A stretch of 64,000 nucleotides of DNA from Nemertoderma westbladi (Eukaryota; Animalia; Xenacoelomorpha). The notes below the pieces were generated by a model. The model saw nothing but the letters and a program-made list of their open reading frames with translations, ran no database searches and was not told the origin of the DNA. Location of the stretch: positions 10,952 through 74,951 of the forward strand of contig JAUCBJ010000225.1 of assembly GCA_032718475.1 (NCBI GenBank), in the 5' to 3' direction. Positions 1 to 56,780 of this stretch are shown here, piece after piece. Made by a program: the position numbers and the translations under genes. The stretch's first letter is position 1, and every line of letters starts with the position of its first letter.

Positions 1-1054
1 ACCTGTCACAGCTTAGCCGTGATGATTCAGATTGCGACATCTAGCAGCTGGTTGCTGGCATGGAAACAGCCATTGGACGCATGGTTCTTTGTTTGGCTTG
101 AGCCAATCAGAGCGATTTTTTCTGTCGACGTGTAGATATTCAGCCGATGATACTAGGAGTGTTCAGTCTTACTGTTTTTTGTGATACCGTTTTGTTGTTG
201 CTATCTAGGCCAGGAACACCGGCTCTAGAGTCAATTCGTTTTCATACTTTAGAAGAAACATTAGTAGGCTTAAGATTATAGAGCGTATAACTGTTATCAG
301 TTCTTAACATATCATATCACATATCGGTCTTGTCACATCTTGTCATATCATATCTTAACCTACCGTCTTAATGCTGTTTACTGTTGTGTTTTGGTTGAAT
401 ATTATTTGGAGAACATATATAAAGAACCCAAATTTCCCAATTTTCTTGATACACTACAGGTTAGAGAGACGGGTTATATATAGCGATTGCGACTTATATT
501 ATTGTGGTATGTAGTGAATTTAATGCTATTTGATAAGCCCTACATGAGTCCATTGCTGTTCGCTTTATATATGATAAAATTCATTGACGGTCGGCAAATT
601 AGTGAGCAGTATTGTGTGTTACCGGTAGTGTGCATGATTGTGACTGATAACTAAGCATTTCCTAAAGAATGCGCCTCATACGTGAATCATAAGCCTTACC
701 GACTTACCGTTGTGATTAGTATAAGTCATATCTCTGTTTACCTAGATAGAGCGCCACGTCCTGAAGGAACTGTTAATATTTCCCGAAAGTGAATAATATT
801 AGTCAGAAATTAATTATTAACTATCAATCGAATAATACAATACAGTAAGCTTACACTGCAATAATAATCTAAGCCCTCAGAATCCAGTCTCCTGGGTATA
901 TCCAGCGGGTGAATGGACGCGCACTAGGCTGGCTTCTGCTAATGTTGTGTTTATTGGTATTAAATATTTGTCATCTTCTAAAGTCTATTTATAAACCAAA
1001 AGACATATAAATTTTGGCAGGTTAAACTGCTAAAGGTCTTCAAAAGCGCGTATA
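1..1054 (+). repeat. E1 5' LTR (first ~212 nt outside window)
   Basis: Near-identical to the 3' LTR; ends ...AAAAGCGCGTATA (other copies end GTACA). CCAAT motif near 101-110. Confidence 0.95.
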
Positions 1055-1065
1055 ATAACAGTTAT
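1055..1065 (+). promoter_or_regulatory. Non-canonical primer-binding site, candidate self-priming PBS (ATAACAGTTAT)
   Basis: Directly abuts the LTR end with no TGG nearby. Exact reverse complement ATAACTGTTAT at 287-297. Same arrangement in E2 (17297-17307 vs 16547-16557). Confidence 0.6.
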
Positions 1066-3290: not shown

Positions 3291-6200
3291 ATGTCTGACA
3301 CTCAGCAAAACCTGTCAGACAGTCTAATCGATACAACCATCTGTGACACAGATAGGAGTGTGGAGCGATTAAGAAAGGAGTTCAGCTCACCTCCTACTGA
3401 AAGAAAGGTCATCCCTCCAGTAGTAGTATCAGACCCTAAGCTAATCCAACACCGTAGGTCTATCATCGGCACTCGGGCCCAAGTCAAACGGAACCAGGAA
3501 GCAGCTGTCCCACAGCAGCAACAGCCTAGTCAAGAAACTTGTTCCCAGCGATCTGATAGCTCCAGTAGTTCGGATACTGTCGAACTGACCCCCGAACGCA
3601 GATTGCAGATGGCGGCTAAAGCCTACTCGGACCCCCTTCTCACCCTTCCTGCCGCAGTGCTAATTACTATATTGATTGCGGTGGAGGAACATCAAGCCGA
3701 TTGGGCGAGAAATAAGCGAGCAACCCAAGATAATTATGCGGGATACGCCAGGGAAGAATTGATGTCTATTGTCGAGTCACAATGGAACTTTCCCGGACCC
3801 GGACTCCCGTTAGATCTGTCCGAGGCTACTTGGGAAGATATACACAGGATGGGAGTGGCTAAAGATACTATGGATCCAGCTGTTTGGAAGAGGTCGGCAG
3901 CAGGATATGTGCAGGGATTCTTCGGCTCCTTAGAGCGATTAGAAGAACAACTGTTTCGACAACCCCAAGGACCTCAAGAGCAGGAAGAACTGCTATATCA
4001 AGTACGCGAAAGAACCCTACGCATTCGACTAATCCTATCAGCTTTTGAGGAAACTTCCAAAAGAAGACAGGACACGTCGCTGCAGGTTGCTGTCAAAACT
4101 TGGTTCCAGCGGGTAGGTCTCAAAGTACAAGAAACAGACCAGTGGAAATCCCAGTTGTCTGAGAGACTAACCTATGACGAACCAACCGATGTCACCCTTC
4201 CTCAAGTGGAAGGCGAAGAGACCGCAGAGAGACCACGAACGAGAGACGCCATCGACATTTATCTGTCCGACTATCAGCGATTCCTAGGAGACGAAGAGTT
4301 GAGGAGACGGCTGTCTGGACTTTCCCCTAATAGTGAAGGAACCCAGCGTGTGTTAGACTCAATCGATGCTGAAATGTTAGCGGCTAACCAAGCTGAGTTT
4401 GATGAAAAACTTCGCCTCACTAGAGTCCAAGAAGAACTAGTAAAGAAAAAACGGATAGAAGACCGAAAGGCAGCTGCAGTAACAGCGGCAATGGCCGAAG
4501 TGGAAGCGGAAAGAAAAGCAGCGGCGGCAGAAGCAGAAGTAGAAAGAAAAGCAGCAGAAGCAGAAAAAAAGGCAGCAAAGGCAGTGGCAGAAGCAGAACG
4601 GAGAGCCTCTGAGGAGACTACCCAACTGGAGTTAGAAAATCTGCAAGAGATGCAAGACAACATAAATAAACAGTTAACTGCTAGTCGAATGCAGATGATG
4701 AGACGATCTACTCCAAAACGCCAGGGATACACGTCATCAGAGGAAAGCGAAACCACCGATCCTGAAGGCGGCGGAAATAGATCTCGTCTAAGCAGGCGTA
4801 GAAAAACATCTCACCGCCACAAATTGCCTGATTTGCCCCCGGCGGTTAGAAGACAACTAACTAGCACAGACTTAGGTAGTACAGAACCCACAGAACAAAT
4901 TATTCAGGTCAAAAGACTCCCTACAATAGTTGATGAGCCTGAAATAATTAGGCTTGTCGTTCCCAAAGCAACTTCTGTGCTAGAGACCCCTGTACTTCCA
5001 GAGCTTAACTCTAAATTCCCTTTACATAGTACTACACTGCCTGTACCCGGTAGAACAGTCCATGAGAATATCCCTGTCCTGGAAGCTGAGAGAGAAATCA
5101 AAGATTTGTCTCCCGTCGTCCCACGTCAGCCCGCTACAATGTTGGCGACTCCCGCTTCGGCGGTCGAGTGGGTAGAAGAGGGACGGCGGGGGATGAATCT
5201 CCTGCTCGGACAGATGCAGGAGACTGTCTACCAACTTAAGGGAACAGTAAGGGAAGGTAGGGCCGAATTGCAAGAAGTGCAGCAAAGTATCGCGCTAGAA
5301 CGCGACAAATTAGTCAATATCCAAAAGGGAATACCAATACCCCCTGTAAAATTGTGTCAACCTGTTAGGTCTGAAGTAGTACATGCGCAAGGTGTGGAGC
5401 CTACATGCATCTATACTGCTAGTGAAGTAGAAACTCCTATAGCAAACCCTATTAAGGGTGATTATAGACCTGTTATTAATGATATCCCTTATAGACCTGA
5501 CAATGATCCGAGAAATTTATATAACGATAATTCGATATTAAATAACACGATGGCACAAGAAAGCTTTACGCGTCAGATGGCTAGAACAGAAGCCCGCCAA
5601 GCGGTCAAAGTGGGAGAGATCGTTAAATTCAATGGAGATGAGATGAAATGGCTACCTTTCAATGAATATTACAAAGATAGCATACAAAACTCTGTACTAT
5701 CTAACGGAGAGAAACTTAGGTTCCTCATCAAGTGATTGGAAGGACCTCCCAGGTTAATGGCGTTAAAGTTTATTGGACATCCAGAAGGATTAAGACAAGT
5801 ATGGGATACATTAAACATCAGGTATGGTAACAAGGATAACATAGCTAAGTATTTGTATGCAAAATTAGTAGCCCCCCGACACTTCCTTAGTAGCGGGATT
5901 ATAGAGTTTTCCGATGAAATTCAGGAGATCTGTAGACAATTGGACTGGTTAGGTAAGTCTCATGAATATCAGAGTTCCATGGTTATTGGAGCAGTAGTCT
6001 CTACTTTACCAAAGGGTGGAGTATGTACACGTTGGGACAAGAAAGTGTTGTACATGAATGAACAACAACGACGAAACCCTACCATGACTGATCTCATGTC
6101 CTTCTTAGATGGTGAAGTAAAACTACAACTCATCAAGCAGTCCAGAGAGAAAACATCGGAAAATAAGGTAAGTGAGAAACCCGCTTCTAGGAGAAGAGTA

Positions 6201-9200
6201 ACACCGGTGTGTTACACTGACGACGGCGAAAGCCAAGCTTCTCAAGAAGAGGACAGCGGGAAAGACATTGAGAGATCTTACTACGTTGGAAAAACCTCAA
6301 AAGATGTAAGTAAATACAAGGCTCGAAACAATGATAGGAGAGAACAGGTTGTCAAGACCCCTCCTCAGTCTCCTAACAGAATGCACCGAAGAAAACCCGA
6401 AGAAAAAACGAGAGTGCATCAAGTTACCCAAGGTAAAGTGAGTAACATAAAACCTAACTGTGCGTTGTGCGACGGGACCCACCGTTTGAGTGCGTGTGCT
6501 GAATTTCTAAAGAAATCCCTTGTAGACAGACGTGCAGTCGTATGGGACAAGCGGTTATGCTATAATTGCCTCAGACCAGGACACCAACGGCGAACCTGTT
6601 ACTCCGATATAAAGTGTGCAAAGTGTGGCGCGAAACATCACATCTTGTTACACAGTGAGTTCGAACGAGACAAACTGAGTCAGGTAAGTGAGCCCGAACT
6701 ACATGTCCAATTCAGTGATGTAAACGACACTGATCAAGAATCTGAGATGGAAGGATTCTATACTGACGAATTCTCCGACGCCAACGAATCCTGTTATCTA
6801 ATCAATACCACAGTGTATCGAGCACTTACTTATGAAAAGGACACCAACGATGAGTTTCCCCCAACTACTTTTGCCAAACAACCATCTTGGAAAGCTCCAA
6901 CTTCCAACGTAGGAATCAGAGAATTTCCTGTAGTGCAGGTAAGAGTTCACGGTCTTAACAAAAGTTACATAGTGAACGCCCTCCTTGACTCCGGCAGCAC
7001 AGGAACATTCATCGATCAAGAACTAGCCGAAGATATCTTTGCTGGACAACCCAAGTTCCGGACTAAATTGAATATGTCAGGAATTATGCAGGTTTGGAAA
7101 TCTACCCTAACGGCAGATTACTATGTAGGTGTGTTGTCCACCCCCCAGGATAAGTTAGGAGCACAAGGTATAAGGTCGGTAAAAATGGTGGCTATAAAGA
7201 ACTTCGCTACTACTCAAGCAGACCTTTATAATTGGGACGAGGATGAGAGCATCCAACATCTTAAGATACCTCGATTCCAGACAGATTATCCTGGAGTGCA
7301 AATACTCATCGGCCAAAACGCGCATGAGGCGCTCGAAACATTGGAGAAACGGCCTGCTCAACCACAACCACTGCAAACCTATGCGGTAAGAACTAGAGTA
7401 GGTTGGTACTTTACTGGCCCTTCCCGCAGGACTCTCGCAGAGAGAATGCCACAAGAACAAACATACCAAGTAAACGATTGGGAAGTGGAGAGCAGTGAGG
7501 TGGACGAACTAACTGAGGGAATACCATACTCCTCAGATAATGACGACATCTACCAACTCTTCGATGAAGAGAACACAATCGACCTACTTACAGAAACCCA
7601 AACTTGGAAAAATCAGGTGAACCTATGTCAACTGATTCGCCCATCGGAACCCATCGCTTACAATGACGAACTCAACGATGAGATAGAGCGCTACAACGCT
7701 AGAACTCGGGACGAACTAGCCGTACGATTCTTTACTCAGGAACTGGTAGAGCCCAATTCATATGATAAGGCTCTATCGATAGAAGAAGAAAGAGCCAAGC
7801 AAATCCAGGAAACAACTACACGTTTTTTAAAGGATCAAGGTAGATATGAAATCGGCCTACCATTTCGAAAACGAGAACCTAGATTTATAAATAACAGACC
7901 CTTGGCAGAGAAAAGAATCGCTCAATTACATCGACGCCTTACAGCTAATGCTTCAGCGAAAGAAATGTACCAAATTCAGCTGAAGAAATTTGTAACAAAG
8001 GGATACGCGGAGCGAGTACCGGAAGGAACACCAGTGACTGAGAGAACGTATTACTTAACACATCATTACGTTCCCAAACCCGGTAAACCACACGAAGTAC
8101 GAGTCGTATTCGATGGCTCCGCCCTATATATGGGCGGAGACTCAATTCCGAGTTGTTACCAGGACCCAACTTACTCCAATCTTTGTTGGGAATACTTTTA
8201 AGATTAAGACAATATTCCATCGCGTTCGCCTCAGACATAGAGGGAATGTTCTTACAAGTCAAGGCGCTGGATAGAGATAGAGACAGCCTGAGATTTCTGT
8301 GGTGGCCTGAAGGAGACCTCAATCAGAAACCGGTAGAGTACTGGATGACCATCCAGGCTTTTGGAATCATATCAAGCCCTTCCAACGCCTGCTCCGTGGT
8401 GCGAACCACTGCGAATGACAACCGAGACTCCTTCTCAAAAGAAGTGATAGACAACATAAAACGCAATATATACATGGACGACAATTTAAGGTCCCTTCCA
8501 TCAGTAGAAGAAGCCATAGCTGTCGCGAAAGGAATGGTAGATTGTTTGAAAAGAGGTGGATTTCGACTGACGAAATTCACTAGCAACTCCCGTGAGTTTC
8601 TGGAAGCCATACCGGTAGAAGACCGAGGAACGAAAGACCTAGACTTAATAAAGGACGATCTTCCTGAAACCAAGACGCTTGGCTTGAAGTGGGACACTGA
8701 AAGAGACATCCTGTTTTTTCAGTTAAAACAGCGAGATAATCCAGTTCGGACCAAACGGATTTGTTTAAGTATCCTGAGCACTTATTTCGACCCATTGGGA
8801 TTTATTAGCCCAGTTATATTGATTGCTCGGAGTTTAGTACAACAAATGTGGCTTGAAAACCACTCATGGGACGATCCGCTTAAGGGTGAACTGTTAAAGA
8901 AATGGATGAAATGGGAAGATTCTCTACCTGCCATCGAGAACTTTATAATTTCCCGTACCTATTTTGGCCATGTTCTTCCTACGTATTCCTATCAACTCCA
9001 TGTGTTTGGAGACGCCAGCGACATGGGAATAGGTATAGTAGCATATCTGCGAGTCGAAACTCCGGATGGGATCAAAGTCGCCTTGGTTACCTCTAAGGCA
9101 TTGATTAACAACAAGTTAAAGGTTCCTCGAGCGGAGTTAAAGGCAGCTTTATACGCTACAGCCATCGGACGGAACGTAACAGAACAAATCGACTATCCAC

Positions 9201-11355
9201 TGGAGAAAACTGTTTATTGGACCGACGCTTTACTCGTGTTGGAGTATCTAACCAATGAAGTCTGTCAGTTCAGCGTTTTTGTTACTAACAGAGTAGCTAT
9301 TATTCTTAGTCGCACAAAGATAGATCAATGGAGACATTGCCCTGGTACGATTAATCCAGCCGATATCGCCTCCAGGGGAGCAACTCCACAGGAACTGATA
9401 GATACTCCAGATTGGTTGGGTGGACCCGACTTCCTGAGCAAGGAAGAGGATGAATGGCCTCCTCACCTTACTACGGCAGAGATTAGACAAGCCAAGGGAG
9501 CGGAGACAGTCAAACCTAAAACCCGGGCGAGTAAATCGAAGTTATTTAAACCGACTATCGATCTATCTGTATTACATGCTTCCGGGAATGATGCTTCGGA
9601 TCCACAATCCCTCAACACAAAAAAGTCTGTTGTGGAAATTAGAGATAGAGATTGGAAATCTGGAATACCAGACGTCTCGCAAGGAATCTCACCCAGGCTG
9701 CAGAGAGCAATGCATCATTACAGTTCCTGGAATCGGCTCTGTAAAGCCGTCACATATTTAAGACGATGTTTTCATCATCACACTCTAGGACGAAGACCAC
9801 TAGTGATAACGCTCCATTGACATCTGCACAAGTTCATGTTATTAAAAATTTACCCAAATATAAGACATCTGACCGTTTTCTAAAGGAGAAAATTAGTCAC
9901 CAGGAGCATGAAGAAACCAATAAGCAGATACTGAGACTCCTGCAATGCTATGAGGATTCCGAAAAGTATTTCCTGTTGTTGAGAAATCCGCAGATGCGCT
10001 TAAGGGATCGATTCTCGAGCACAATGATAGATGGGTTAATACGTGTTGGAGGAAGACTCACCAATGCGCCCTTATCCTTTGACACCAAATTCCCCATACT
10101 TATTAGAAATCTTGAAGTACAAATCAAGATGATTGTAGATGTTCACAGTAAACTTTATCATGCTGGTAGAGAACGAATTCTTAGCGAAATTCGAACTCGC
10201 TATTATTTTGATAAACCCCGTAGAGCTCTGAACCAAGTTCTTAGGAACTGCATACCCTGTAGGAAAGCATTCAGTAGGCCTTTAACACAGCGAGAGGCAG
10301 AATTACCTAGGGAACGAGTAAGCTTCTATGAACCACCTTTTACTAATACTGGTGTAGATTTATTTGGCCCTATTGAAGTATATCGTGCTAGGACTATAGT
10401 CAAGAGATGGTGTGTCATCTTCGTGTGCATGACTTGTAGAGCCATCCATCTCGATATGGTGAACGATCTATCTACCAACAGCTTCGTCTTAAGTTTACGA
10501 CGACAGATCGCTCGCTTCGGGACGAGTAATACCATGAGATCGGATAAGGGAACGAACTTCATTGGTGCCAACAACGAAATACAGGCTTACGTGAAGGACT
10601 GGAACCAAAGACAGGTGGACGACCAGCTAAGGATAACAGCGTCTAGCTGGACCTTCAACGCCGCCGACGCCCCTTGGTGGGGAGGAAGTTGGGAGAGATT
10701 AATTCGAAGTGTCAAAACCGCATTTCACTTTATAGTGCCATGCCGCGCGTATCTCACCGACGAACTTTTGCGGACGTTAATGGAGGAAATCGCTGCCTAT
10801 CTCAACGAGAGACCGCTTATGCCAGTCTCATCGAGTCCCGATTCCCTGGAAGCGCTAACACCCGCGCACTTCCTACTGAAGAAACCTGTAGCCATGCTCC
10901 CACGATCGGAGATTGCCGACGGAGACGAATACTGCCGTCGAACTAGGCAACTTATGCAGTTGCTATCCCGTCGTTTCGCTGACCATTTCGAGAAACATTA
11001 TCTGCCCACGCTACAACTTCGAACTAAGTGGTTTGCGCAGCAAGAAAACGTCAGCGCCGGAGATATGGTGCTTATTGTAGATCCAGACCTCCCACGTAAA
11101 CGGTGGCAGACAGGTCGTATCATCGAGACCCACATCTCAGATGATGGTTTAGTACGCTCGGTAGAACTCATCGTCATGCGGCGTAACTTCAAGAAGCCAG
11201 GCATAATCTTTGAGATGCAACAACTCAATCGCCCAGTTGGTCGTTTATGTTTACTGGAAAGAGACAGAGAACTCTCCGGAAACTATGGAAGGCAAGACAC
11301 TCTTCCCACGACCACCTCCCTAATTCCTCAAACATCTAGGGACTCCCCCACGTGA
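3291..11355 (+). pseudogene. gag-pol: BEL/Pao gag-pol polyprotein (Gag, 3x Cys/His knuckle, aspartic protease, RT, RNase H, integrase) with one nonsense codon and two frameshifts
   Basis: Gag KFNGDEMKWLPF...EKLRFL. BEL-type triple knuckle CALCDGTHRLSAC / CYNCLRPGHQRRTC / CAKCGAKHHILLH. Protease LLDSGST. RT RVVFDGS, DIEGMFLQV, YMDD. RNase H LHVFGDAS, PRAEL, NPADIASRG. Integrase H..H..CIPC, GVDLFGP, SDKGTNF, WWGGSWERL. TGA at 5733-5735 is TGC in E2. Frame changes near 8130 and 9766. Confidence 0.95.
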
Positions 11356-11893
11356 TACGTCTGGAGTGGGTGTATGACTATATTATTTTATCTATTTTGT
11401 TATATTTTTATATGCGAACTTTATTATGTACTTTATTATAATCGTTTTTATTCAATTTTATTTAGTAGAATGTTATTTTAGTGATTATTTAGTAGATTAG
11501 TGCCATATATTAGTGTTTATTACGTACGTAATTACTTATAATATATATTTAGTGCGACGGCGAGAAAATAATTATTTTTCTCTTTCCTTACTGTCCGTAT
11601 CATATTATAAATACGTGACTACAGTAAGATGAAATGTCCGTACTTCTTAAAGTACAATTAAAGCCACTACTATATTCAAGTATTATTGGTAGGCAGAGTA
11701 TTAGGAATGCAAAGTTCAGATCCTCGTGTCTCGGCTAAACCAAGCTCTGGGTAGACCTTGGAAACGACTTGCCTCTTCACACTGACATTGCTTCGTGCGA
11801 TATTGCTCTTCTACCTTATATTAAATAATACATATAGTAGCGTGATGTCCATATAACAGTAGCGTAAAACGCAAATAAATCTGTTAAACCTTT

Positions 11894-12175
11894 TGACCAT
11901 CTGTAATTCTAGTCGATTAAGATATCGCGGCACCCACCGATATACTTGAAAGACCAATTCTAGAATCAGTGGTTAACATCCCCAGACAAGTTCTGGAATA
12001 AATCGGTGCCCATCTTAAATATTAATTTAATATTTATTAAAATCTGTAAAATTCAGATCCGTTAACAATTCTAGTCGATTAAGATATCGTAGCACTTCCC
12101 GATACTCTTAGAAGACAAATTTCATAGAATTAAGGATCCTATGTCCCCAGACCTGCTCTGGGATCAAATTGTGTC
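11894..12175 (+). other. Two diverged ~120-nt direct repeats with a shared predicted RNA fold in the pol-ORF2 spacer
   Basis: AATTCTAGTCGATTAAGATATCG...CGATA...CTT..AAGAC...TAGAAT...CCCAGA...TCTGG at 11894-12011 and 12056-12175. Retained in E2 (~24297-24578) and E3 (~53914-54196, minus strand). Confidence 0.7.
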
Positions 12176-12984
12176 AATTATTAACATCAAATAATAAAAT
12201 TGACGGGAATAAATTCAAATTCATATTTTAAATGAATTTCATAAATTGTCATTTTGTACAATTTATAACATTCCCAAAATTCCCTTAATTAATAGATCAT
12301 GGGAGCGGAGATTCATCCTATTGAGTGTATTAGAGTGCGAGAATCTCCGACATATAGTCAATAGCCAATAAAATTAATAAAATCATGTATAAAGAGGATA
12401 TTGACAATTAAAGAATTACTATTAAATAGCATTCCAGATCTGTATGCATGAGAATTACCCTAATTCTACCGCTAGCTTTCCATAATGTCACCATAGCAAC
12501 ACCCACGCTAGAATTAGAAGCAAGTTAAAAGAACAATAGAAAGCTTGTCACATTGCATAGCATAGAGAATACATAGCACACTGTTAGTATCCAAGGATAC
12601 ACAGTAATAACGTGACATTCTGGAAGGCACTGACTAACGGACAAATGACCTGTATGTGTACAATTGGTGACAGTTGTATGGAATTTGTGCGTTTATAGGT
12701 GAATGTTACTGCTAAAGTATGTTTACAGTAGCTAGTCGCAATTGTAAAAATAGCCCAACTCTCCTATAGAAAGAACCTAAGTGGATCCAAGCCTTTGGGA
12801 CGGACAGTGGAGTGACTTGTGCCGGTTATCGTTGTCGTGCTGTTGCTACATGTTGGCGTAAACACCGCGACGACGGTACATCGGCGCTGAGAATCCCACT
12901 GTCCGGGGGCAAAGAGAAGTAGGCAGCGACGCCCGCTCGCCTAAATACAAACTTATTTGATATTAATAAACTCAGATAGCAGAT

Positions 12985-15900
12985 ATGACGGAGTTGATAG
13001 AAGATGATCTTGGTATTAGGGAGCGATATATCCTACCTTTACAAGCATTTGTGGATAGCTTAATACGCGGTGAAGCTGATCCAACCATTACGGAGGACGA
13101 TGGTCGTTATATCGAACCGCCGATGTCCCAAGAGCAACTTGCGCGTGAATTGGACTATCGAAAATTCACCACTCGCTATACGAATCGTAATGGTACGTAT
13201 ATGGACTTCTTAACGACCGGCCATCCTATCGATTTACATGATACGGACGATGTAGATACAGAGAGGGAAATGGTTCTATTTAAATATCATACCCAGCGGA
13301 GTCGTAACGATAAACCGAGAATAGATCACGAAAATTCTATTCGTAATCGACTGGAAAGAGAAAACGTTGAAGAACCGGATAAACGCATCGACTTCAACGA
13401 ATACCTAGAATTTTTGAGAGAAACCTATCTCAACATCGCTAGTCAGCAGAACTTAGAGACTCGATATCCTCAAGGTATACATCACGACCCTGTGGTAGAA
13501 CTCAAACGGCTCTATTTCACTATGATGTATCTTACCGCCGATCGTCCACTACCTGTTATCCCGGATAGTTTTGAACAAATGGAAGAATACTGCAAAACTG
13601 GAGAACGATCACCCGCGTTTCCTCTACAGGACGTACGTCTTTGATATTATTGTGACGAATGCCCTAGACCCAACCAACAAACTGAAAGACATAAACATCC
13701 GCGGAGACGTTGCGCTAAACATAGTTTTACGCGTTACACTTACGGGAGTTTCGAGCGAAACCTGTTCGACATACCACCCACGATCGCTCGTCTTAAACGA
13801 TCACTGAATAAACCCATGATCAGAGTTCCGGAATACTCGGTCAGGCCTCCTCATTCCCTAGTGAGACCTCAAACTCTTGATCCTAACAGTATCACTGATC
13901 CTCCCGAGCTATATTCCCTGTTCAAAGACTTAGTGTTACCCGAACAATTAATCGGTGGTACTCCGGTAGTGGGTTCGTTAGACATCTGCCCATCCTACTT
14001 AGCCAGATTGGGACGCGGGCAGCTAATATCGCCCTTTGATCCTTACAATCGTCCAGGATTAAACCCGATGCAACCTGCCACGGAAGTCGAGGAGAGCGTT
14101 ATAAGAAACGCTTTAGACGCCATTCGACAGAAAATCGGAAAGGGAACACAAGATTGTTTAGAGAAACGTAAATTACAACAACAAGTCCAATCGGTGAAGG
14201 AGTTAGCATTGCCACAATTCGATAGAGAAATCCATACCCTCGAGGAAGACATCGAGCTTGGACGCACGTATTCTCTACAAGAATTTTTAGATGAACGCTT
14301 ACAGAGACAAGCAGAAGAAATTCTACTCGAGGAGAAACACACGAAACTGGAAGAGAGAGAAGACGCCGCTTTAGCCCAACCGGAAGCTCAAATCCTCATG
14401 ACGGATCTCTACTCTAAAACCGTTCGTCATCCCTCGATGATTCCACATTTCGGGGACAAGCTCTTCGCGACGATACAACCTCAACCGGTTGATATCAGTA
14501 CAGGATCGCAAAATCTTATCGCTGACGCCCCTATGTTACAGCGTCCACCGATCGAGGCCGCTCGTGTTGACGGTATACTTGTTGAACCTCCGGACAATCG
14601 AGCGGATCTTGTCCGTCGCATGGTACACGATGTCAACATACGCGCTAGACCTTTACAGAACTCGTTTTATGGGATTAAAGACCACCCTTATTACGTTAAT
14701 CTGACTCAATATTATATGGTAAAACCAGAAGACCCGACGCATAATTTAAAGTTTCTACCACTAATAAATCCTCTAGACATTGTCGAACTCGAACAATTGC
14801 AGAAACATCTGGATCAGTTAGTAAAGGTAAACTCATTTAGAAAACCGTATAACATTTCTCGAATCGAGAAAGATATAGAACCTCCTTATAATCTCGATGG
14901 ATTTATTAAAACTCGATTAGTCCATTGGAATCTAGATGTATTATTTGAAGAAGAGAAAATACAAAGATATGGAAATGTGGAGACGTATACCACTCGGCAT
15001 ATGAAGTATAGTGATCTCCATGACGCTAACCAATGCGCCACCTTGTGGCATCCAGTAGGGATGACCCTAGAGAACGCCACCAAGGAGTGGAATGAAACTC
15101 TTAATGTTATTGAGATGTATGGAGTTGTCACCTACGATAATGAAGGTAGCGTTCCGGTCGGAGAGCTAGGAACTACGCGCATGATCCACATACGCGGATT
15201 AGCTGGTTCTACCCACGTGTTTACGCGAGCGTGTTCCGACGTGATTGATTATTCTTTTGAAACTCTCACCGAAACACAAAAGAATCTCCGACATGGACAA
15301 TTCGAACTCGCGCAGCGTTACGTCATTGACACCGAACGCAAACCGGCCATGGGCATCGATGGATCGATGTTACCCCAGCCCGTACTCGAAATGTTGTTCA
15401 ACGAAAGAATCCTTAAAATCGGCTCAGCTGTTTATGGAGATCTCCAAAACGACTTTCGGAATATGGAGGACATTCCATACCCTTTCGTTGATACTCAGCT
15501 GATTGCTCCCTGGGCAGAAGGTCGAGGTTTCTTCCGCACCATGTATGCTAATACGTCTAGCAACATTACAAAGGTGCAACGAACTTCCATCGGACATCTT
15601 GCCTTTCAGGAATACGGATGGAATTTCAAAGTCGGAAATCCCATTAACTATCAACAAGTATACGGAGACCATTATTCTCGATTATACTTTGATGGACCAT
15701 TGACCGCACCTGGCGCCATGTATAGCTTCATGAGTGTTCCACTCCGTCCCTCCTTAGCTATATACACGATCTTTGAAAACACCGCACTTGCCGGTTGGCT
15801 AGCCGATGTGTGCAGTCGTACTATACGCGCCCATCCATTAATACTTGGGACCAAACTCGCTAAGCTAGATGAACATAATAAATTCATCCGTTTCGAATGT

Positions 15901-16046
15901 TTCCGGCGATTTTTAACCCCGTTCCGCAACGTGGATAGCCAATTTAAAGACCGCGCTTTGACCAAGCTCAGCCTAAGAGACTCAGCTGCAGAGAAGTTGG
16001 ATAGCGCTGGATTCGCCATTTTCCAAGAGATTTGTATATCGAACTT
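12985..16046 (+). pseudogene. E1 extra ORF2, 5' part: large protein with a DnaQ-like (DEDDy; RNase D/WRN/EXD/Mut-7 type) 3'-5' exonuclease domain
   Basis: ORFs 12985..13644 and 13816.. are in the same frame with a single TGA (13642-13644) and no other stop between them. Exo motifs VVTYDNEG (D 15136, E 15142), LPQPVLEMLFNERILKIGSAVYGD (D 15439), FVDTQ, SIGHLA...GWNFK, PLRPSLAIYTIFE (Y 15763, E 15775). Confidence 0.75.
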
Positions 16047-28165: not shown

Positions 28166-28170
28166 AACTT

Positions 28171-28306
28171 GCACTCCTCAGTTATACAAAGACCTCGAAT
28201 CCCCACCGGTTATTCTGTCGTGGAAATTCAGACAATAGGTCCACCTGAAGAGACAGCCCACCTCAGCTATGCATTTGGAAGACGAACCAATATGTCTAGA
28301 ATCTGA
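28171..28306 (+). pseudogene. E1 extra ORF2, 3' remainder after the E2 insertion
   Basis: Joining 16046 to 28171 reads ...ICISN-LHSSVIQRPRIPTGYSVVEIQTIGPPEETAHLSYAFGRRTNMSRI*. Confidence 0.8.
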
Positions 28307-29357
28307 GGAGATTCAGCCTATCGCGCCCCGGAACAGTGACAATGATTACATCATAGAATGGTATCAAGGTCCACAGTGTCTCACTGCGTACGATTATCGA
28401 CACGCCAACTATGTTTCTAGGCAACGTTGTCGGTTATGCGCATCGAGAGACCACGATACGCCCATGGACACCAACGCCCGCTGTTCCTATTTCCAAGAAC
28501 AACCGACTATGGAAATTTATTGCGCATATTGCAGACTCAATAACTTGCATATCTTTGCGGTTTGCCCTCAATTTATGACTCAATGTCACCATTGTCAACT
28601 AAAGGGACATGCCAGTTTCGATTGCCCTTTTAATCACGATTTGGAAAGCGTAGATGAAATGATCACACTACGTTACATCAGAGCTTGGGAAGCGAACGCT
28701 GATTTACATTGTGATTCGCGCCATCGATATTATCCCGGACGCGCTTACGAAGGAGTTTATGCGTTCCATCCTTATCTATTCGCTTCGGTTGAACAGAAAT
28801 CACGCATATCAAGTTACGAGCTACTGAAGCGCGTCGGAGAATGTATTTCAACCAAATTCGTACGCAAATTTCTCAGGAGTGTTAATCCTAGCGACCTTCA
28901 TTCCTATAACTTAATCAATTATATCCGTCAGGATCCGGACTATGGAGACTTGTTTGTTAACTCACACCCCGAGTTACAGGAAGTATATCGACGGCCTTAC
29001 AAATACCGAGCCCGCGAACGCGAGTTGGAAAGAACCATTAAACGCCGGAGGTTTCTAACTGCCTATGGTCCACCCACGGCTCTCGTTCAGACCACTCGTA
29101 AAGGACCCGTAAGAGTGGCTGTCTTAAAACGAGCTCACAAAGCCATTAGACCCCTCTCCCCCGACGTTGATGTCAATCAACCCGGTACTTCGACTGGCGG
29201 ATACACCGACCATAATCCTACACCCTCTGATGCAATCATATTGCACCTTTCACCCAGGAGTTATAGCCCTCCTTGTAAAGTGGCTCGCCCCAAAGAGAAA
29301 AAGACTCTGGCTAGCTTTAAAAAACTGCGTAAACGCCGTCCGCGCAAGAAAGACTAA
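28269..29357 (+). CDS. E1 extra ORF3: 362-aa Cys/His zinc-knuckle protein with basic NLS-like tail
   Basis: CRLCASRDH..C, CAYCRLNNLHIFAVC, CHHCQLKGHASFDC (canonical CX2CX4HX4C); tail KKLRKRRPRKKD; open in all three copies. Confidence 0.85.
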   Translation: MHLEDEPICLESEEIQPIAPRNSDNDYIIEWYQGPQCLTAYDYRHANYVSRQRCRLCASRDHDTPMDTNARCSYFQEQPTMEIYCAYCRLNNLHIFAVCPQFMTQCHHCQLKGHASFDCPFNHDLESVDEMITLRYIRAWEANADLHCDSRHRYYPGRAYEGVYAFHPYLFASVEQKSRISSYELLKRVGECISTKFVRKFLRSVNPSDLHSYNLINYIRQDPDYGDLFVNSHPELQEVYRRPYKYRARERELERTIKRRRFLTAYGPPTALVQTTRKGPVRVAVLKRAHKAIRPLSPDVDVNQPGTSTGGYTDHNPTPSDAIILHLSPRSYSPPCKVARPKEKKTLASFKKLRKRRPRKKD

Positions 29358-29435: not shown

Positions 29436-30701
29436 TGTAAAAGCTTCTGTGGGATATAACTGGCCCTTTTGCTTCGCAATCCAGTTTCCCCCCTAGGCGC
29501 TGGAATACTCTAAAAGGCTCTATAACTATATATATTCCCCTCGCCCGCAAGGTACCGTTATAGGTGTTTTAACGGACATAAAAGTCATTCTGCTATATAC
29601 GTGTTTTGGCGGACATGGTAAGGCAAAAAACCTGCAATGCACCAAATACCTTTCACAGCTTAGCCATGATGATTCAGATTGCGACATCTAGCAGCTGGTT
29701 GCTGGCATGGAAACAGCCATTGGACGCATGGTTCTTTGTTTGGCTTGAGCCAATCAGAGCGATTTTTTCTGTCGACGTGTAGATATTCAGCCGATGATAC
29801 TAGGAGTGTTCAGTCTTACTGTTTTTTGTGATACCGTTTTGTTGTTGCTATCTAGGCCAGGAACACCGGCTCTAGAGTCAATTCGTTTTCATACTTTAGA
29901 AGAAACATTAGTAGGCTTAAGATTATAGAGCGTATAACTGTTATCAGTTCTTAACATATCATATCACATATCGGTCTTGTCACATCTTGTCATATCATAT
30001 CTTAACCTACCGTCTTAATGCTGTTTACTGTTGTGTTTTGGTTGAATATTATTTGGAGAACATATATAAAGAACCCAAATTTCCCAATTTTCTTGATACA
30101 CTACAGGTTAGAGAGACGGGTTATATATAGCGATTGCGACTTATATTATTGTGGTTTGTAGTGAATTTAATGCTATTTGATAAGCCCTACATGAGTCCGT
30201 TGCTGTTCGCTTTATATATGATAAAATTCATTGACGGTCGGCAAATTAGTGAGCAGTATTGTGTGTTACCGGTAGTGTGCATGATTGTGACTGATAACTA
30301 AGCATTTCCTAAAGAATGCGCCTCATACGTGAATCATAAGCCTTACCGACTTACCGTTGTGATTAGTATAAGTCATATCTCTGTTTACCTAGATAGAGCG
30401 CCACGTCCTGAAGGAACTGTTAATATTTCCCGAAAGTGAATAATATTAGTCAGAAATTAATTATTAACTATCAATCGAATAATACAATACAGTAAGCTTA
30501 CACTGCAATAATAATCTAAGCCCTCAGAATCCAGTCTCCCGGGTATATCCAGCGGGTGAATGGACGCGCACTAGGCTGGCTTCTGCTAATGTTGTGTTTA
30601 TTGGTATTAAATATTTGTCATCTTCTAAAGTCTATTTATAAACCAAAAGACATATAAATTTTGGCAGGTTAAACTGCTAAAGGTCTTCAAAAGCGCGTAC
30701 A
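29436..30701 (+). repeat. E1 3' LTR (1266 bp)
   Basis: TGTAAAAGC...GCGCGTACA; followed by CAGCT (presumed TSD, partner outside window). Confidence 0.96.
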
Positions 30702-33140: not shown

Positions 33141-33169
33141 AATGTTTTTAAAAAATGTTTCTTCCCATC

Positions 33170-49525: not shown

Positions 49526-50307
49526 AAATCACTGCTTATTATCTATATCAGGTTACTCACTGTTGATTGCAAAATATTTTATTGATGGATTACTCTGTCA
49601 GACAGAGACTTCAGAACATTGTAGAGGGAATTTACTTTAGTTTACTCTATTGAGCGTTGCCAAGTTACAGAGTGGTATCTGTTCGCGCTTTTAGACCTTT
49701 AGCAGTTTAACCTGCCAATTTTAGTTGTTTAGTTGTTTAGTTTAGTTGTTTTAGAAGCCAGTCTGTGCGCGATCATTCACCCACAGTTAAGGGAGACTGG
49801 ATTCGGATGCTTTGATAGTGATTGCAGTGTAGACCTACTGTATTATTCGATTGATCGTTAATATATAATCTCTGACAATATATTTACTTTCGGGGAAATA
49901 TTAACAGTTCCTTTAGGACGTGGCGCTTTAAGTATAAAAACAGAGTTATGACTTATACTAATCACAACTAGATGGCTACTGAGTTTCGTAAATAGCGCAT
50001 TCTTTAGGAGATGCTTTATTAACCTTCACACTACTTCACACGACTTCACACTATTTCGCACTGATCTGCCGACCGTCACTGAATTTGATCATATATAAGG
50101 AGGATCGCAACTGACACATGTAGGGATTATGAAATAGCATTTAATTCACACAAAAAACCACTATAATGTAAGTCGCAGTTGCTACCGGTAAACCTGTTCC
50201 TCTCACCTTCAGTAATCAAGAAGATTGGGGGTTTTATGATTATTTATCGGTATTCTCCAAATATAACAGCAATATCCATTAACATAACACCAATTAATAA
50301 CAGAAGT

Positions 50308-51577
50308 TGTACGCGCTTTTGAAGACCTTTAGCAGTTTAACCTGCCAAAATTTATATGTCTTTTGGTTTACAAATATACTTTAGAAGACGACAAATATTT
50401 AATACCAATAAACACAACATTAGCAGAAGCCAGCCTAGTGCGCGTCCATTCACCCGCTGGATAATCCCGGGAGACTGGATTCTGTCGGCTTAGATTATTA
50501 TTGCAGTGAAGCTTACGGTATTGTATTATTCGATTGATCATTAATAATTAATTTCTGACTAATATTATTCACTTTCGGGAAATATTAACAGTTCCTTTTG
50601 GACGTGGCGCTCTATCTAAGTAAACAGAGATATGACTTATACTAATCACAACGGTAAGTCGGTAAGGCTTATGATTCACGTATGAGGCGCATTCTTTAGG
50701 AAATGCTTAGTTATCAGCCACAATCATGCACACTACCGGTAACGCACAATACTGCTCACTAATTTGCCGACCGTCAATGAATTTTATCATATATAAAGAG
50801 AATAGCAACGGACTCATGTAGGGCTTATCAAATAGCATTAAATTCAATACACACCACAATAATATAAGTCGCAATCGCTATATATATAACCCGCCTCTCT
50901 AACCTGTAGTGTATCAAGAAAATTGGGAAATTTGGGTTCTTTATAAATGTTCTCCAAATAATATTCAATCCACTGATATAAGATATGACAACAGTAAAAC
51001 ATTAAGACGGTAGGTTAAGATATGATATGAACAGATATGTACAGCGATATGCACTGATATGGACCGATATGTGAGTTGTTATGAACCGATAACAGTCATA
51101 CGCTCTATAATCTTAAGCCTACTAATGTTTCTTTCTAGAGCCGTTGTTTCTGGCTTAGACAGCAATAACAACAAAGTATCAGTAAAAAACTGTAAGACTG
51201 AACAATCCCAGTATGATCGGCTCAAAGCTCCACATCGACAGAGAGAATCGCTCTGATTGGCTGAAGCCAAACAAAGAACCATGCGTCCAATGGCTGTTTC
51301 CATTTAAGCAACCAGCTGCTAGATGTCGTAATCTGAATCATCACGGCTAAGCTGTGTAAAAGTATTTGCCGTATTGCGGGTTTTTTGCCTTACCATGTCC
51401 GCTAAAACACGTATATAGCAGAATGACTTTTATGCCCGTTAAAACACCTGTAACGGTACCTTGCGGGCGAGGGGAATATATATACAGTTAGAGAACCTTT
51501 TAGAGTATTCCAGCGCCTGGGGGGGAAACTGGATTGCGAAGCAAAGGGGCCAGTTATATCCCACAGAAGCTTTTATA
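50308..51577 (-). repeat. E3 3' LTR (1270 bp), PPT at 51578-51585
   Basis: Reverse complement of the family LTR; 50664-51577 is nearly identical to 57880-58793. Confidence 0.95.
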
Positions 51578-51655
51578 CCGCTCCCAGAAAATGGGATTTG
51601 AGTCTATAAAATATACAAAATCACAGTTTCTAATATACGTAAATACTCTAAACAG

Positions 51656-52549
51656 TTAGTCTTTCTTGCGCGGACGGCGTTTACGCAGTTTTTTAAAGCT
51701 AGCCAGAGTCCTTTTCTCTTTGGGGCGAGCCACTTTACAAGGAGGGCTATAACTCCTGGGTGAAGGGTGCAATATGATTGCATCAGAGGGTGTAGAATTA
51801 TGGTCGGTGTATCCGTCAGTCGAAGTACCGGGTTGATTGACATCAACGTCAGGTGAGAGGGGTCTAACGGCTTTGAGAGCTCGTTTCAAGACAGCCGCTC
51901 TTACGGGTCCTTTACGAGTGGTCTGAACGAGGGCCGTGGGTGGACCATAGGCAGTTAGAAACTTCCGGGGTTTAATGGTCCTTTCCAACTCGCGTTCGCG
52001 GGCTCGGTATTCGTAAGGCCGTCGATATACTTCCTGTAACTCGGGGTGTGAGTTTACAAACAAGTCTCCATAGTCCGGATCCTGACGGATATAATTGATT
52101 AAGTTATAGGAATGAAGGTCGCTAGGATTAACACTCCTGAGAAATTTGCGTACGAATTTGGTTGAAATACATTCTCCGACGCGCTTCAGTAGCTCGTAAC
52201 TTGATATGCGTGATTTCTGTTCAACCGAAGCGAATAGATAAGGATGGAACGCATAAACTCCTTCGTAAGCGCGTCCGGGATAATAGCGATGGCGCGAATC
52301 ACAATGTAAATCAACGTTCGCTTCCCAAGCTCTGATGTAACGCAGTGTGATCATTTCATCTACGCTTTCCAAATCGTGATTAAAAGGGCAGTCGAAACTA
52401 GCATGTCCCTTTAGTTGACAATGGTGACATTGAGTCATAAATTGAGGGCAAACCGCAAAGATATGCAGGTTATTGAGTCTGCAATATGCGCAATAAATTT
52501 CCATAGTCGGTTGTTCTTTGAAATAGGAACAGCGGACGTTGGTGTCCAT
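51656..52549 (-). CDS. E3 ORF3 zinc-knuckle protein
   Basis: 297 aa, homologous to E1 and E2 ORF3. Confidence 0.8.
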   Translation of the reverse strand: MDTNVRCSYFKEQPTMEIYCAYCRLNNLHIFAVCPQFMTQCHHCQLKGHASFDCPFNHDLESVDEMITLRYIRAWEANVDLHCDSRHRYYPGRAYEGVYAFHPYLFASVEQKSRISSYELLKRVGECISTKFVRKFLRSVNPSDLHSYNLINYIRQDPDYGDLFVNSHPELQEVYRRPYEYRARERELERTIKPRKFLTAYGPPTALVQTTRKGPVRAAVLKRALKAVRPLSPDVDVNQPGTSTDGYTDHNSTPSDAIILHPSPRSYSPPCKVARPKEKRTLASFKKLRKRRPRKKD

Positions 52550-52705
52550 GGGCGTATCGTGGTCTCTCGATGCGCATAACCGACAACGTTGCCTAGAAAC
52601 ATAGTTGGCATGTCGATAATCGTACGCAGTGAGACACTGTGGACCTTGATACCATTCTAGGATGTAATCGTTGTCGCTGTTCTGGGCGCGATAGGCTGAA
52701 TCTCC

Positions 52706-53104
52706 TCAGATTCTAGGCATATTGGTTCGTCTTCCCAGTCTGTTACGAATAGAATTTTCGTGATCTATTCTCGGTTTATCGTTCCGACTCCGCTGGGTAT
52801 GATATTTAAATAGAACCATTTCCCTTTCGGTGTCTACATCGTCCGTATCATGTAAATCGATAGGATGGCCGGTAGTTAGGAAGTCCATATACGTACTATT
52901 ACGATGCGTATAGCGCGCGGTGGATTTTCGATAGTCCAATTCACGCGCAAGTTGCTCTTGGGACATCGGCGGTTCGATATAACGACCATCGTCCTCCGTA
53001 ATGGTTGGATCGGCTTCACCGCGTATTAAGCTATCCACAAATGCTTGCAAAGGTAGAGTATATCGCTCCTTGATACCAAGATCATCTTCTATCAACTCCG
53101 TCAT
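52706..53104 (-). CDS. E3 internally deleted ORF2
   Basis: Same RNRL/GRRTNMPRI junction as E2. Confidence 0.75.
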   Translation of the reverse strand: MTELIEDDLGIKERYTLPLQAFVDSLIRGEADPTITEDDGRYIEPPMSQEQLARELDYRKSTARYTHRNSTYMDFLTTGHPIDLHDTDDVDTEREMVLFKYHTQRSRNDKPRIDHENSIRNRLGRRTNMPRI

Positions 53105-54736
53105 ATCTGCTATCTGAGTTTGTTAATATCGAAATGAGTTTATGTTTAGGCGAGCGGACGTCGCTGCCTACCTCTCTTTGCCCCCGGACAGTGGGATCCT
53201 CAGCGCCGATGTACCGTTGTCGCGGTGTTTACGCCAACATGTAGCAACAGTACGACAACGATAACCGGCACAAGTCACTCCACTGTCCGTCCCAAAGGCT
53301 TGAATCCACTTTAGGTTCTTTCTATAGGAGAGTTGGGTTACTTTCACAATTGCGACTAGCTACTGTAAACACACCTTAGCAGTAACATTCACCTACAAAC
53401 GCACAAATTCCACACAACTGTCACCAATTGTACACATACAGGCCATTTGTCCGTTAGTCAGTGCCTTCCAGAATGTCACGTTATTACTGTGTATCCTTGG
53501 ATACTAACGGTGTGCTATGATTCTCTATGCTATGCAATGGGACAAGCTTTCTATTGTTCTTTTAACTTGCTTCTAATTCTAGCGTGGGTGTTGCTATGGT
53601 GACATTATGGAATGCTAGCGGTAGAATTAGGGTAATTCTCATGCATACAGATCTGGGATGCTATTTAATAATAATTCTTTAATTGTCAATATCCTCTTTA
53701 TGCATGATTTTATTAATTTTTATCGGCTATTGACTATATGTTGGAGATTCTCGCACTCTAATACACTCAACAGGATGAATCTCCGCTCCCATGATCTATT
53801 AATTAATGGAATTTTGGGAATGTTATAAATTGCACAAAATGACAATTTATGAAATTCATTTAAAATATGAATTTAAATTTATTCCCGTGAATTTTATTAT
53901 TTGATGTTAAAATTGACACAATTTTTATTCCAGAGCATGTCTGGGGACTGAGGATCTTTAATTCTATAAAATTGTCTTTTAAGAGTATCGGTAAGTGCTG
54001 CGATATCTTAATTGACTAGAAATTTTAAAGGATCCGAATTTTACAGATTTTAATAAATATTAATTAATATTTAAGATGGGCACCGATTTATTCCAGAACT
54101 TGTCTGGGGACGTTAACCACTGGTTCTAGAATTTTGTCTTTCAAGTATATCGGTGGGTGCCGCGATATCTTAATCGACTAGAATTACAGATGGTCAAAAG
54201 GTTTAACAGATTTATTTGCGTTTTACGCTACTGTTAGAGGGACATCACGCTACTATATGTATTATTTAATATAAGGTAGAAGAGCAATATCGCACGAAGC
54301 AATGTCAGTGTGAAGAGGCAAGTCGTTTCCAAGGTCTACCCAGAGCTTGGTTTAGCCGAGACACGAGGATCTGAACTTTGCATTCCTAATACTCTGCCTA
54401 CCAATAATACTTGAAGTATAGTAGGAGCTTTATTGTACTTTAATAAGTACGGACATTTCATCTTACTGTAGTCACGTATTTATAATATGATACGGACAGT
54501 AAGGAAAGAGAAAAAATAATTATTTCTCGCCGTCGCACTAAATATATATTATAAGTAATTACGTACGTAATAAACACTAATATATTGCACTAATCTACTA
54601 AATAATCACTAAAATAACATTCTACTAAATAAAATTAAAGAAAACGATTATAATAAAATTACATAATAATACATACATAAATATAAAATAAAAACAAATA
54701 TAAAATGATATAGTCACACGCCCACTCCATATGTTA

Positions 54737-56780
54737 TTACGTTATAGAGTCCCTAGATATTTGTCGGATTAGGGAAGTGGTCGTAGGAAGAGTATCTTGC
54801 CTTCCATAGTTTCCGGACAGTTTTCGGTCTCTTTCCAGTAAACATAAACGACCAGCTGGGCGATTGAGTGGTTGTGTTAGTTTCTCCGCTCCCTTGGCCT
54901 GTCTACTCTCCGCCGTGGTAAGATGAGGAGGCCATTCTTCTTCTTCTTTACTTAAGAAGTCGGATCCACCTAACCAGCCTGGAGTATCTATCAGTTCTTG
55001 AGGAGTTGCTCCTCTGGAAGCGATGTCGGCTGGATTAATCGTCCCAAGGCAATGTCTCCATTGATCTACATTGGAGTTAATATCGTCATTATCTGAGGAG
55101 TATGGTGTTCCCTCAGTTGGGTCGTCCACCTCACTGCTCTCCACTTCCCATTCCTTTACTTGGTATACCTGTTGTTGAGGTAATCTCTCTTTGAGAGTTC
55201 TACGGGAAGGGCCAGTGAAGTACCAACCTACTCTAGTTCTTACCGCATAAGTTTGTAATGGCTGCGGTTGAGCAGGCCGTTTCTCCAATGTCTCGAGCGC
55301 CTCATGCGCGTTTTGGCCGATGAGGATTTGCACTCCAGGATAATCGGTTTGGAATCGAGGTATCTCAAGATGTTGGATGCACTCGTCCTCGTCCCAGTTA
55401 TAAGGTTCTGCTTGAGTAGTAGCAAAGTTCTTTATAGCCACCATTTTTACTGACCTTATACCTTGTGTTCCTAACTTATCCTGGGGGGTGGACAACACAC
55501 CTACATAGTAATCTGCCGTTAGGGTAGATTTCCAAACCTGCATAATTCCTGACATATTCAATTTAGTCCGGAACTTGGGTTGTCCAGCAAAGATATCTTC
55601 GGCTAGTTCTTGATCGATGAATGTTCCTGTGCTGCCGGAGTCAAGGAGGGCGTTCACTATGTAGCTTTTGTTAAGACCGTGAACTCTTACTTGAACTACA
55701 GGAAATTCTCTGATTCCTACGTTGGAAGCTGGAGCTTTCCAAGATGGTTGTTTGGCGAAAGTAGTTGGGGGAAACTCATCGTTGATGTCCTTTTCGTAAG
55801 TAAGTGCTCGATACACTGCGGTATTGATTAGATAACAGGATTCGTTGGCGTCGGAGAATTCGTCAGTATAGAATCCTTCCATCTCAGATTCTTGATCAGT
55901 GTCGTTTACATCACTGAATTGGACATGTAGTTCGGGCTCACTTACCTGACTCAGTTTGTCTCGTTCGAACTCACTGTGTAACAAGATGTGATGTTTCGCG
56001 CCACACTTTGTACACTTTATGTCGGAGTAACAGGTTCGCCGTTGGTGTCCTGATCTGAGGCAATTATAGCATAACCGCTTATTCCACAGGACTGTACGTC
56101 TGTCTACAAGGGATTTCTTTAGAAATTCAGCACACGCACTCAAACGGTGGGGCCCGTCGCACAGTGCACATTTTGGTTTGATGTTACTCACCTTAACTTG
56201 GTTAACGTTATGCACTCTCGTTCTTTCTTCGGGCTTTCTTCCGTGAATTCTCTTAGGAGACGTAGGAGGAGTTGTTGTTACCTGTTCTCTCCTGTCACTG
56301 GTTCGAGACTTGTATTTACTTACGTCTTTATAGGTCTTGTTGTCATAGTAAGATTTTGCTGTGTCTTTCCCGCTGTCCTCTTCTTGAGAAGCTTGGCTTT
56401 CGCCGTCGTCAGTATAACACACTGGTATTATCCTTCTCCTAGAAACGGGTTTCTCACTTACCTTATTTTCCGATGTTTTCTCTCTGGACTGCCTTATGAG
56501 TTGTAATTTCACTTCACTATCTAAGAAGGACATGAGATCAGCCATGGTAGGACTTCGTCGTTGTTGTTCATTCATGTACAACACTTTCTTGTCCCAGCGC
56601 GTACATACTCCACCCTTTGGTAAAGTAGAGACTACGGCTCCAATGACCATGGAACTCTGATATTCATGCGACTTACCTAACCAGTCCAGTTGTCTACAGA
56701 TCTCTTGAATTTCATCGGAAAACTCTATAATCCCGCTACTAAGGAAGTGTCGGGGGGCTACTAATTTTGCATACAAATAC
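54737..56780 (-). pseudogene. gag: E3 Gag-protease ORF, 5' half lost by rearrangement
   Basis: Open 679-aa frame with knuckles, LLDSGST and E2-type pol junctions; cut at 56780. Confidence 0.9.

Follow-up and report, generated by a model that had tools for sequence, protein, structure and literature searches.

Which function could be served by an exonuclease-like gene that sits where a long terminal repeat (LTR) retrotransposon would be expected to carry env? The question is raised by a stretch of 64,000 nucleotides from Nemertoderma westbladi (assembly GCA_032718475.1, contig JAUCBJ010000225.1, positions 10,952 to 74,951 of the forward strand), hereafter the window, in whose coordinates all positions are given. 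It contains an element, E1, that by its Pao-type pol, its order of gag, protease (PR), reverse transcriptase (RT), RNase H (RH) and integrase (IN) and its TG...CA LTRs is a BEL/Pao element (Belpaoviridae), together with two non-autonomous copies of the same family, E2, which is nested in it, and E3. In the env position, E1 has two further open reading frames (ORFs): ORF3, which is predicted to encode a DEDDy-like 3'-5' exonuclease, and ORF4, whose CCHC-type knuckles are predicted to grip RNA. We tentatively propose, at less than even confidence, that the two would form a split module by which the 3' ends of E1's own RNA are trimmed.

Reconstruction of ORF3

The pieces of ORF3, its putative exonuclease domain and the insertion that interrupts it are the following.

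12985..13644, plus strand: first piece of ORF3, 219 aa, acidic, from the ATG at 12985 to an in-frame stop at 13642-13644
13645..16046, plus strand: second piece of ORF3, 800 aa, open until the E2 insertion
28171..28306, plus strand: last piece of ORF3, beyond E2, with the end codon of ORF3 at 28304-28306
15076..15840, plus strand: DEDDy-like 3'-5' exonuclease domain of ORF3, as indicated by a homolog, profiles and motif residues
16047..28165, plus strand: E2, nested non-autonomous copy of the E1 family, its LTRs identical at 1246/1250 positions
16042..16046 and, as second copy, 28166..28170, plus strand: 5-bp target-site duplication of E2, from sequence comparison

Removal of E2 together with one AACTT yields a single ORF3 of 1065 codons (1020, one that is split by the insertion and 44, with the internal stop counted), as the original prediction had it, and the motifs named there are all found: TYDNEG at 15130, the LP block at 15370, ILKIGS at 15409, GD at 15436, VDTQ at 15487 and Y-x3-E at 15763-15777. 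The claim that ORF3 is not an Env protein holds as well, since it lacks a transmembrane (TM) segment; an Env identity is rejected for ORF3 and ORF4 alike, the best 19-residue Kyte-Doolittle means being 1.14 and 0.83, respectively. A C-x2-C..H..C pattern said to follow the internal stop was found once, with atypical spacing and no family match. The whole middle of ORF3 (13645-15075, approximately 480 aa), in which a cluster of Cys and His, a stretch rich in proline and an acidic stretch resembling a coiled coil are present, gave no family match.

The internal stop had been put down to a plausible CGA>TGA change, and here public sequencing runs show otherwise. Their contigs span the whole ORF3 stretch (30 of 30 bins in four of four runs; X1 and X2 come from one sample, from which the window may itself derive, X3 comes from a separate study, and X5 is presumably an RNA run). 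At the stop codon, 497,046 of 497,371 of the depth in run X1 and 180,705 of 180,764 in run X3 differ from the window, so that the stop is all but confined to this copy.

Evidence for a DEDDy-like exonuclease domain

An HMMER search of 1.84 billion representatives returned a single homolog of the ORF3 domain, the metagenomic protein P0083 (E 2.3e-6), which shares approximately 30% identity with it over 171 residues, across ExoII-ExoIII, and has a clear ExoI D-x-E, the same K-x7-D plus DTQ block and the same Y-x3-E. The RNase D family TIGR01388 matches the ExoII block of ORF3 (E 0.0032). A reference profile was built from 12 bacterial RNase D/PolA domains, namely 10 of the 30 listed plasmid matches, picked for their diversity, together with RNase D and PolI of E. 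coli. When 207 window frames were scanned blindly with this profile, ORF3 came first among them (E 0.045; runner-up 1.1), with D819 (residues are numbered from the ATG at 12985) placed on the ExoII aspartate. When the window domain and P0083 were paired and compared with the same profile by HHalign, a value of 91% and a score of 48 were obtained, 100 column shuffles giving a mean of 13.4 and a maximum of 20.8. By these comparisons, the ExoII block of ORF3 is beyond chance.

In the Atlas searches, all scores fell below 0.9 and so count as leads only. Those of the ORF3 domain (best 0.89) are all 3'-5' exonucleases, headed by giant-virus 3'-5' exonuclease clusters, and those of P0083 point to trypanosome RNase D-like proteins, the top one (0.86) being a euglenozoan exonuclease-CCHC cluster. 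With a sole homolog that is metagenomic and leads of these two kinds, the placement of the domain in the small-RNA group of EXD1, EXD2, Mut-7 and WRN, as originally suggested, is not supported.

It has to be noted that some of the results weigh against the assignment. P0083 by itself reaches 91% with HHalign, whereas the window domain by itself reaches 20%, and a Pfam search of the ORF3 domain gave no match. In keeping with such doubts, the ORF3 region could be a real conserved protein of a different fold, with a short chance likeness to exonucleases, as all single-sequence matches are weak and mostly confined to ExoII; this is nevertheless highly improbable, given that independent methods agree on the family and the residues and that P0083 is recognizably DEDDy-like. 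We consider a DEDDy-like fold for 15076-15840 very probable, although it rests in part on P0083. The domain claimed by the original prediction is thus backed by P0083, the RNase D/PolA profile, HHalign and TIGR01388, and is best filed as DEDDy-like rather than as a proven member of the DEDDy exonucleases.

Further searches added little. No new homolog came from a word-index search of the ORF3 domain, nor from viral contigs, prokaryote genome contigs, phages, plasmids or PHROGs, and the word-index search of P0083 matched only itself. Nor did sequence searches of the PDB add a homolog; where matches were obtained, all were proteins with knuckles, Air2 and a TbRND-type entry (E 0.24 and 2.8) among them. 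The AlphaFold2 models of the ORF3 domain have a pLDDT of 30.7 from the single sequence and 30.4 from a two-sequence alignment; a fold search with the latter had no exonuclease among the matches listed (best Z 3.1), the model being too poor for this to carry weight. A metagenome scan yielded two loci from 264 stretches, one of which (L002) is a PF01612 exonuclease with the ExoII aspartate block; it weighs little, having been retrieved by a pattern drawn from ExoII.

Candidate catalytic residues and selection

One of the motifs is readily placed. The ExoII aspartate is D819 (15439), which lies in the K-x7-D ... DTQ block and is aligned with the ExoII aspartate of the profile. The candidate ExoIII is Y927/E931 (15763, 15775), the Y-x3-E being found in both ORF3 and P0083. 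The ExoI D-x-E that had been assigned to TYDNEG is present as a pattern, but its placement is not unique, as there are three candidates: D718/E720 (15136, 15142), D757 (15253) and D782/E784 (15328). We prefer D718/E720 as the candidate, in that after its D-x-E come two hydrophobic segments resembling strands, which align with the ExoI region of P0083 at a score of 22 vs 21 for the other segment compared, a weak margin. An ExoI-only profile gave no ExoI placement in the window.

A working active site is called into question by several features. Besides the ambiguity of ExoI itself, ExoIII lies beyond the reach of the reference-profile alignment and the fourth acidic residue is E rather than the usual D. 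The distance from D718/E720 to ExoII is 101 residues, compared to 68 in P0083 and 65 in the trypanosome RNase D TbRND, so that an insertion of approximately 35 residues would be needed. D757, the position picked by both MAFFT and HHalign, has the usual spacing to ExoII but no glutamate, and D782/E784, the top-scoring ExoI core, is merely 37 residues away from ExoII.

These features bear on an alternative in which the fold is catalytically dead and acts as an RNA binder or decoy, as in EXD1 and Maelstrom; inactive derivatives of this kind are known in piRNA biogenesis (PMC5408684). If ExoI is D757, the glutamate is missing, and the E in fourth place points the same way. Nonetheless, we regard a dead fold as unlikely, since the D718-x-E720 segment can be aligned, if weakly, to the ExoI region of P0083, where all the acids are kept, and since the variants listed for the TYDNE codons comprise three common synonymous changes and zero replacements.

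Consistent with the original expectation of a dN/dS below 1, and contrary to neutral evolution, the variants found in the public runs indicate purifying selection on ORF3. Of the 40 variants listed between 15100 and 15830, 34 are synonymous where 12.5 would be expected (0 of 20000 draws), which corresponds to a crude omega of 0.08; the 40 are the best supported of 150, a choice that favours common, synonymous changes, tells against a literal use of the value and leaves the omega rough. None of the six non-synonymous variants among these best-supported 40 of 150 affects D718, E720, D819, Y927 or E931. Over the whole of ORF3, 28 of 38 listed variants fall at third positions (40 of 674 shown, minus two upstream of the ATG). 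Comparisons of E1 with E2 and E3, respectively, gave dN/dS values of 0.30 and 0.13 for the start of ORF3 (124 codons), 0.30 and 0.28 for ORF4, with 0.09-0.13 in its knuckle half, and 0.29 and 0.24 for gag-PR.

ORF4 and its possible link to the exonuclease

The putative exonuclease of ORF3 has a neighbour in another frame and two natural deletion derivatives in the window, of which E2 was listed above.

28239..29357, plus strand: ORF4, 372 codons between stops, ATG first found at 28269; encodes three knuckles of the CCHC type and, as its tail, a basic stretch
50296..56780, minus strand: E3, a further non-autonomous copy, of which the 3' part is present; its ORF3 deletion is shared with E2

In E1, ORF4 overlaps the end of ORF3 in a different frame, and exonuclease and knuckles are thus encoded by separate ORFs, whereas P0083 has the exonuclease and three CCHC knuckles in a single chain. 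The knuckles of P0083 match those of ORF4 (BLASTP E 0.002; score 62, reached in 0 of 500 shuffles). The match of ORF4 to the gag knuckles of E1 is weaker (score 41, 12 of 500 shuffles), and the reading of ORF4 as a plain copy of the latter was rejected on this ground.

E2 lacks RT and most of RH and IN and has an in-frame deletion of the exonuclease, with most of ORF4 retained. The ORF3 deletion junction of E2 and E3 is also present as a loose end in the public run X5, and the derivative therefore also occurs outside this window. That the deletion arose by splicing was rejected, as the junction shows short microhomology instead. Because the exonuclease is deleted along with RT and IN while most of ORF4 stays, the pattern of losses fits an exonuclease that is supplied in trans. 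Just past the ORF3 stop there is a one-base difference between E1 (28300-28330) and the corresponding positions of E2 (25785-25810) and E3 (52685-52710, minus strand): in the two derivatives ORF3 and ORF4 share a frame with one stop between them, while in E1 the frames are separate and ORF4 has its own ATG. With the shared frame, readthrough could yield a fusion of exonuclease and knuckles as in P0083.

The case for a partnership of the two ORFs is weakened in two respects. The knuckles of P0083 also match the gag knuckles of E1 (score 54, 0 of 500 shuffles), and because this is almost as good as the match to ORF4, the link between P0083 and ORF4 appears partly generic. In addition, ORF4 is mostly retained in E2 and E3 in spite of the loss of the exonuclease and may for that reason act alone.

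A candidate primer site complementary to the LTR

A further peculiarity of the family concerns the region just past the 5' LTR.

1..1054, plus strand: 5' LTR of E1, truncated at the window start; matches the 3' LTR at 1047/1052 aligned bases
29436..30701, plus strand: 3' LTR of E1, 1266 nt, TG...CA
287..297, plus strand: site of 11 nt in the LTR, exactly complementary to those 11 nt that lie directly past the LTR
1055..1065, plus strand: primer-binding position of E1, complementary to the LTR site; the same in E2 at 17297-17307

No TGG primer site occurs within 120 nt past either 5' LTR (E1 and E2), and no tRNA genes were found in the 64-kb window. Instead, the 11 nt that directly follow the LTR are complementary to a site inside it, which is present in all four LTRs of E1 and E2 (at 287, 16547-16557, 27416 and 29934) and, with one G-U compatible mismatch, in two further LTRs (51089 and 58305, minus strand). 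Such a complement arose in 5 of 5000 LTR shuffles, in 11 of 5000 when six offsets were allowed and in 10 of 9608 internal control 11-mers, in a test that was posed only after the missing TGG had been seen. The predicted energy of the 11-bp duplex is -10.1 kcal/mol. By its length and position, the complement recalls the self-priming of Tf1, in which 11 nt past the 5' LTR are likewise complementary to an LTR site and the tRNA-type TGG is likewise missing; Tf1, however, is of the Ty3/gypsy type, and its primer is cut by RNase H.

Several considerations tell against self-priming, or against a trimming step in it. The predicted pairing probability is 0.09-0.14 if the RNA starts at the 11-nt site and 0 if it starts upstream, and the TATA-like boxes at 16140, 16721, 16814 and 17248 do not fit a transcript start at 16547, the one at 16721 being downstream of the 11-mer. 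The 11-mer is near-palindromic and the bases before it resemble the LTR end; it may thus stem from an old duplication or serve for binding or dimerization. The primer may alternatively be a tRNA fragment. Finally, in Tf1, RNase H alone makes the primer from the first 11 nt of the transcript.

A possible RNA-trimming module and competing roles

In the model that we tentatively favour, catalysis by ORF3 would follow the two-metal mechanism of the DEDD family, and the substrate would be RNA rather than DNA, as suggested by the knuckles and by analogy with trypanosome RNase D. Like RT and IN, the exonuclease would be supplied in trans. The most specific candidate substrate is the self-primer: RNA of the LTR site would anneal just past U5, with its 3' end pointing towards the LTR, and an unpaired 3' overhang, with the RNA held by the knuckles, would be trimmed back to the duplex to leave a priming end. 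Host-added tails on E1 RNA, which the module would remove, are a second candidate. In its most complete form, that is, a BEL/Pao element without tRNA priming, whose 11-nt own-RNA primer has its 3' end trimmed by a captured, split exonuclease-knuckle module convergent on trypanosome RNase D and supplied in trans to deleted copies, the model is quite unlikely to be correct in every part.

The same domain evidence would equally serve an active counter-silencing nuclease, in which the exonuclease, directed by the knuckles, would break down host piRNAs or siRNAs, or trim them too far, and would thereby free the E1 family from silencing. The family is abundant, since three DNA runs each contain thousands of its variant contigs (11224, 14961 and 4837), and action in trans would shelter the deleted copies too. 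Overexpressed TbRND, moreover, depletes small guide RNAs (PMC7797062). Against this, the rotifer families with DEDDy ORFs include both high- and low-copy ones and are still covered by small RNAs (PMC5408684), and the odd primer site is left unexplained. Counter-silencing is accordingly a doubtful possibility, and the weight shifts from it to the processing of the element's own RNA because of ORF4, the shared exonuclease deletion and the non-tRNA primer site, none of which figured in the original prediction. If counter-silencing were true, E1 would represent an LTR element of animals equipped with a nuclease against small RNAs.

A DNA-directed accessory enzyme, for cDNA proofreading or end-polishing, would have precedent in that single-stranded DNA is a substrate of DEDDy members and in that Dada DNA transposons also bear a DEDDy exonuclease, although in Dada the domain lies within the DDE transposase and is proposed to act on DNA ends (PMC3706591). 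The length of E1, at least 18.5 kb excluding E2, could favour proofreading. However, the knuckle partner suggests RNA, and the domain stands apart from pol, 1.6 kb downstream in a separate ORF, which makes this role improbable.

Relation to known systems

That DEDDy ORFs occur in retroelements of bdelloid rotifers, as noted in the original prediction, is borne out by published ORF3s of rotifer LTR elements and Terminons (PMC5408684, PMC6431247, PMC5718144). The Juno and Vesta LTR elements and Athena/Terminon (PMC5408684) resemble E1 in having, after pol and at the place of env, an RNase D-like ORF with no TM segment and an altered DEDD motif. Compared by description, they differ in that the variant there is DEED, while here the backbone is BEL/Pao, the motif D-E-D-E and the ORF approximately 1065 codons long, with a separate ORF4 and visible purifying selection. 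No rotifer sequence was among the matches of any search.

TbRND is an enzyme with an exonuclease domain followed by CCHC fingers, in which the fingers bind RNA and select uridines and the exonuclease domain trims (PMC7797062). The same order is found in the single chain of P0083 and in the succession of ORF3 and ORF4. TbRND differs in being a cellular mitochondrial enzyme, one chain with four fingers and a canonical DEDD motif, and the kinship shown is at the superfamily level only. The Belpaoviridae Atlas, Cer13 and Tas (PMC9094657) share with E1 the BEL/Pao backbone and a captured gene after pol; their third genes encode membrane fusion glycoproteins, whereas ORF3 has no TM segment (PMC9094657, PMC535339).

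The original statement that no DEDDy ORF is known from BEL/Pao agrees with the literature searched, in which no exonuclease ORF was reported for BEL/Pao, the early BEL papers being outside that coverage. Papers of 2000-2002 are said to have noted an exonuclease domain in some BEL-clade elements. The available parts of PMC2774666, PMC11662393 and PMC11599104 are silent on the matter. If the favoured model is true, the capture described here extends exonuclease captures to BEL/Pao and hints at tRNA-independent priming outside Ty3/gypsy. What captured exonucleases do in retroelements has been in question ever since they were reported from rotifers, no activity having been demonstrated there; to this question the E1 family brings many copies, plainly visible purifying selection and natural derivatives with deletions, as well as a probable partner for RNA binding and a specific candidate for the substrate.

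Other features of the element and the window

The coding backbone of E1 lies upstream of ORF3.

3291..11355, plus strand: gag-PR-RT-RH-IN of E1, BEL/Pao type, from Pfam matches, motifs and frames

The Pfam matches comprise Peptidase_A17 (E 1e-36), DUF5641 (E 1e-18), Integrase_H2C2 and DUF1759. One stop, at 5733-5735, and frame changes near 8087-8201 and 9745-9820 interrupt the frame. A search with the RT gave 81 matches, nearly all with PF05380, and those named are mostly from invertebrate animals. In E2, gag-PR forms a long open frame at 19529-23761.

The leader of approximately 2.2 kb (1055-3290 in E1 and 17297-19560 in E2) contains a 38-nt unit in 3.3 copies and a 288-nt unit in 1.9 copies. 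Between pol and ORF3 lies an AT-rich spacer of 1.6 kb (11356-12984; GC 0.35), which is retained in E2 and E3 at approximately 94% identity; signals for the expression of ORF3 may reside in it. Other LTR and leader fragments of the E1 family, in both orientations, are found at 49753-50263, 56780-57618 and 57880-58798 and include an older LTR piece that is 75% identical.

Elsewhere in the window there are two non-LTR (LINE) fragments, one at 33142-34425 with an RT and one at 36495-39362 with an endonuclease and an RT. Upstream of the latter, an ORF at 34912-36330 without a family match may be an ORF1. Tandem arrays with units of 35, 51, 18, 14, 108 and 19 nt occupy 40000-49000 and 59500-61900.

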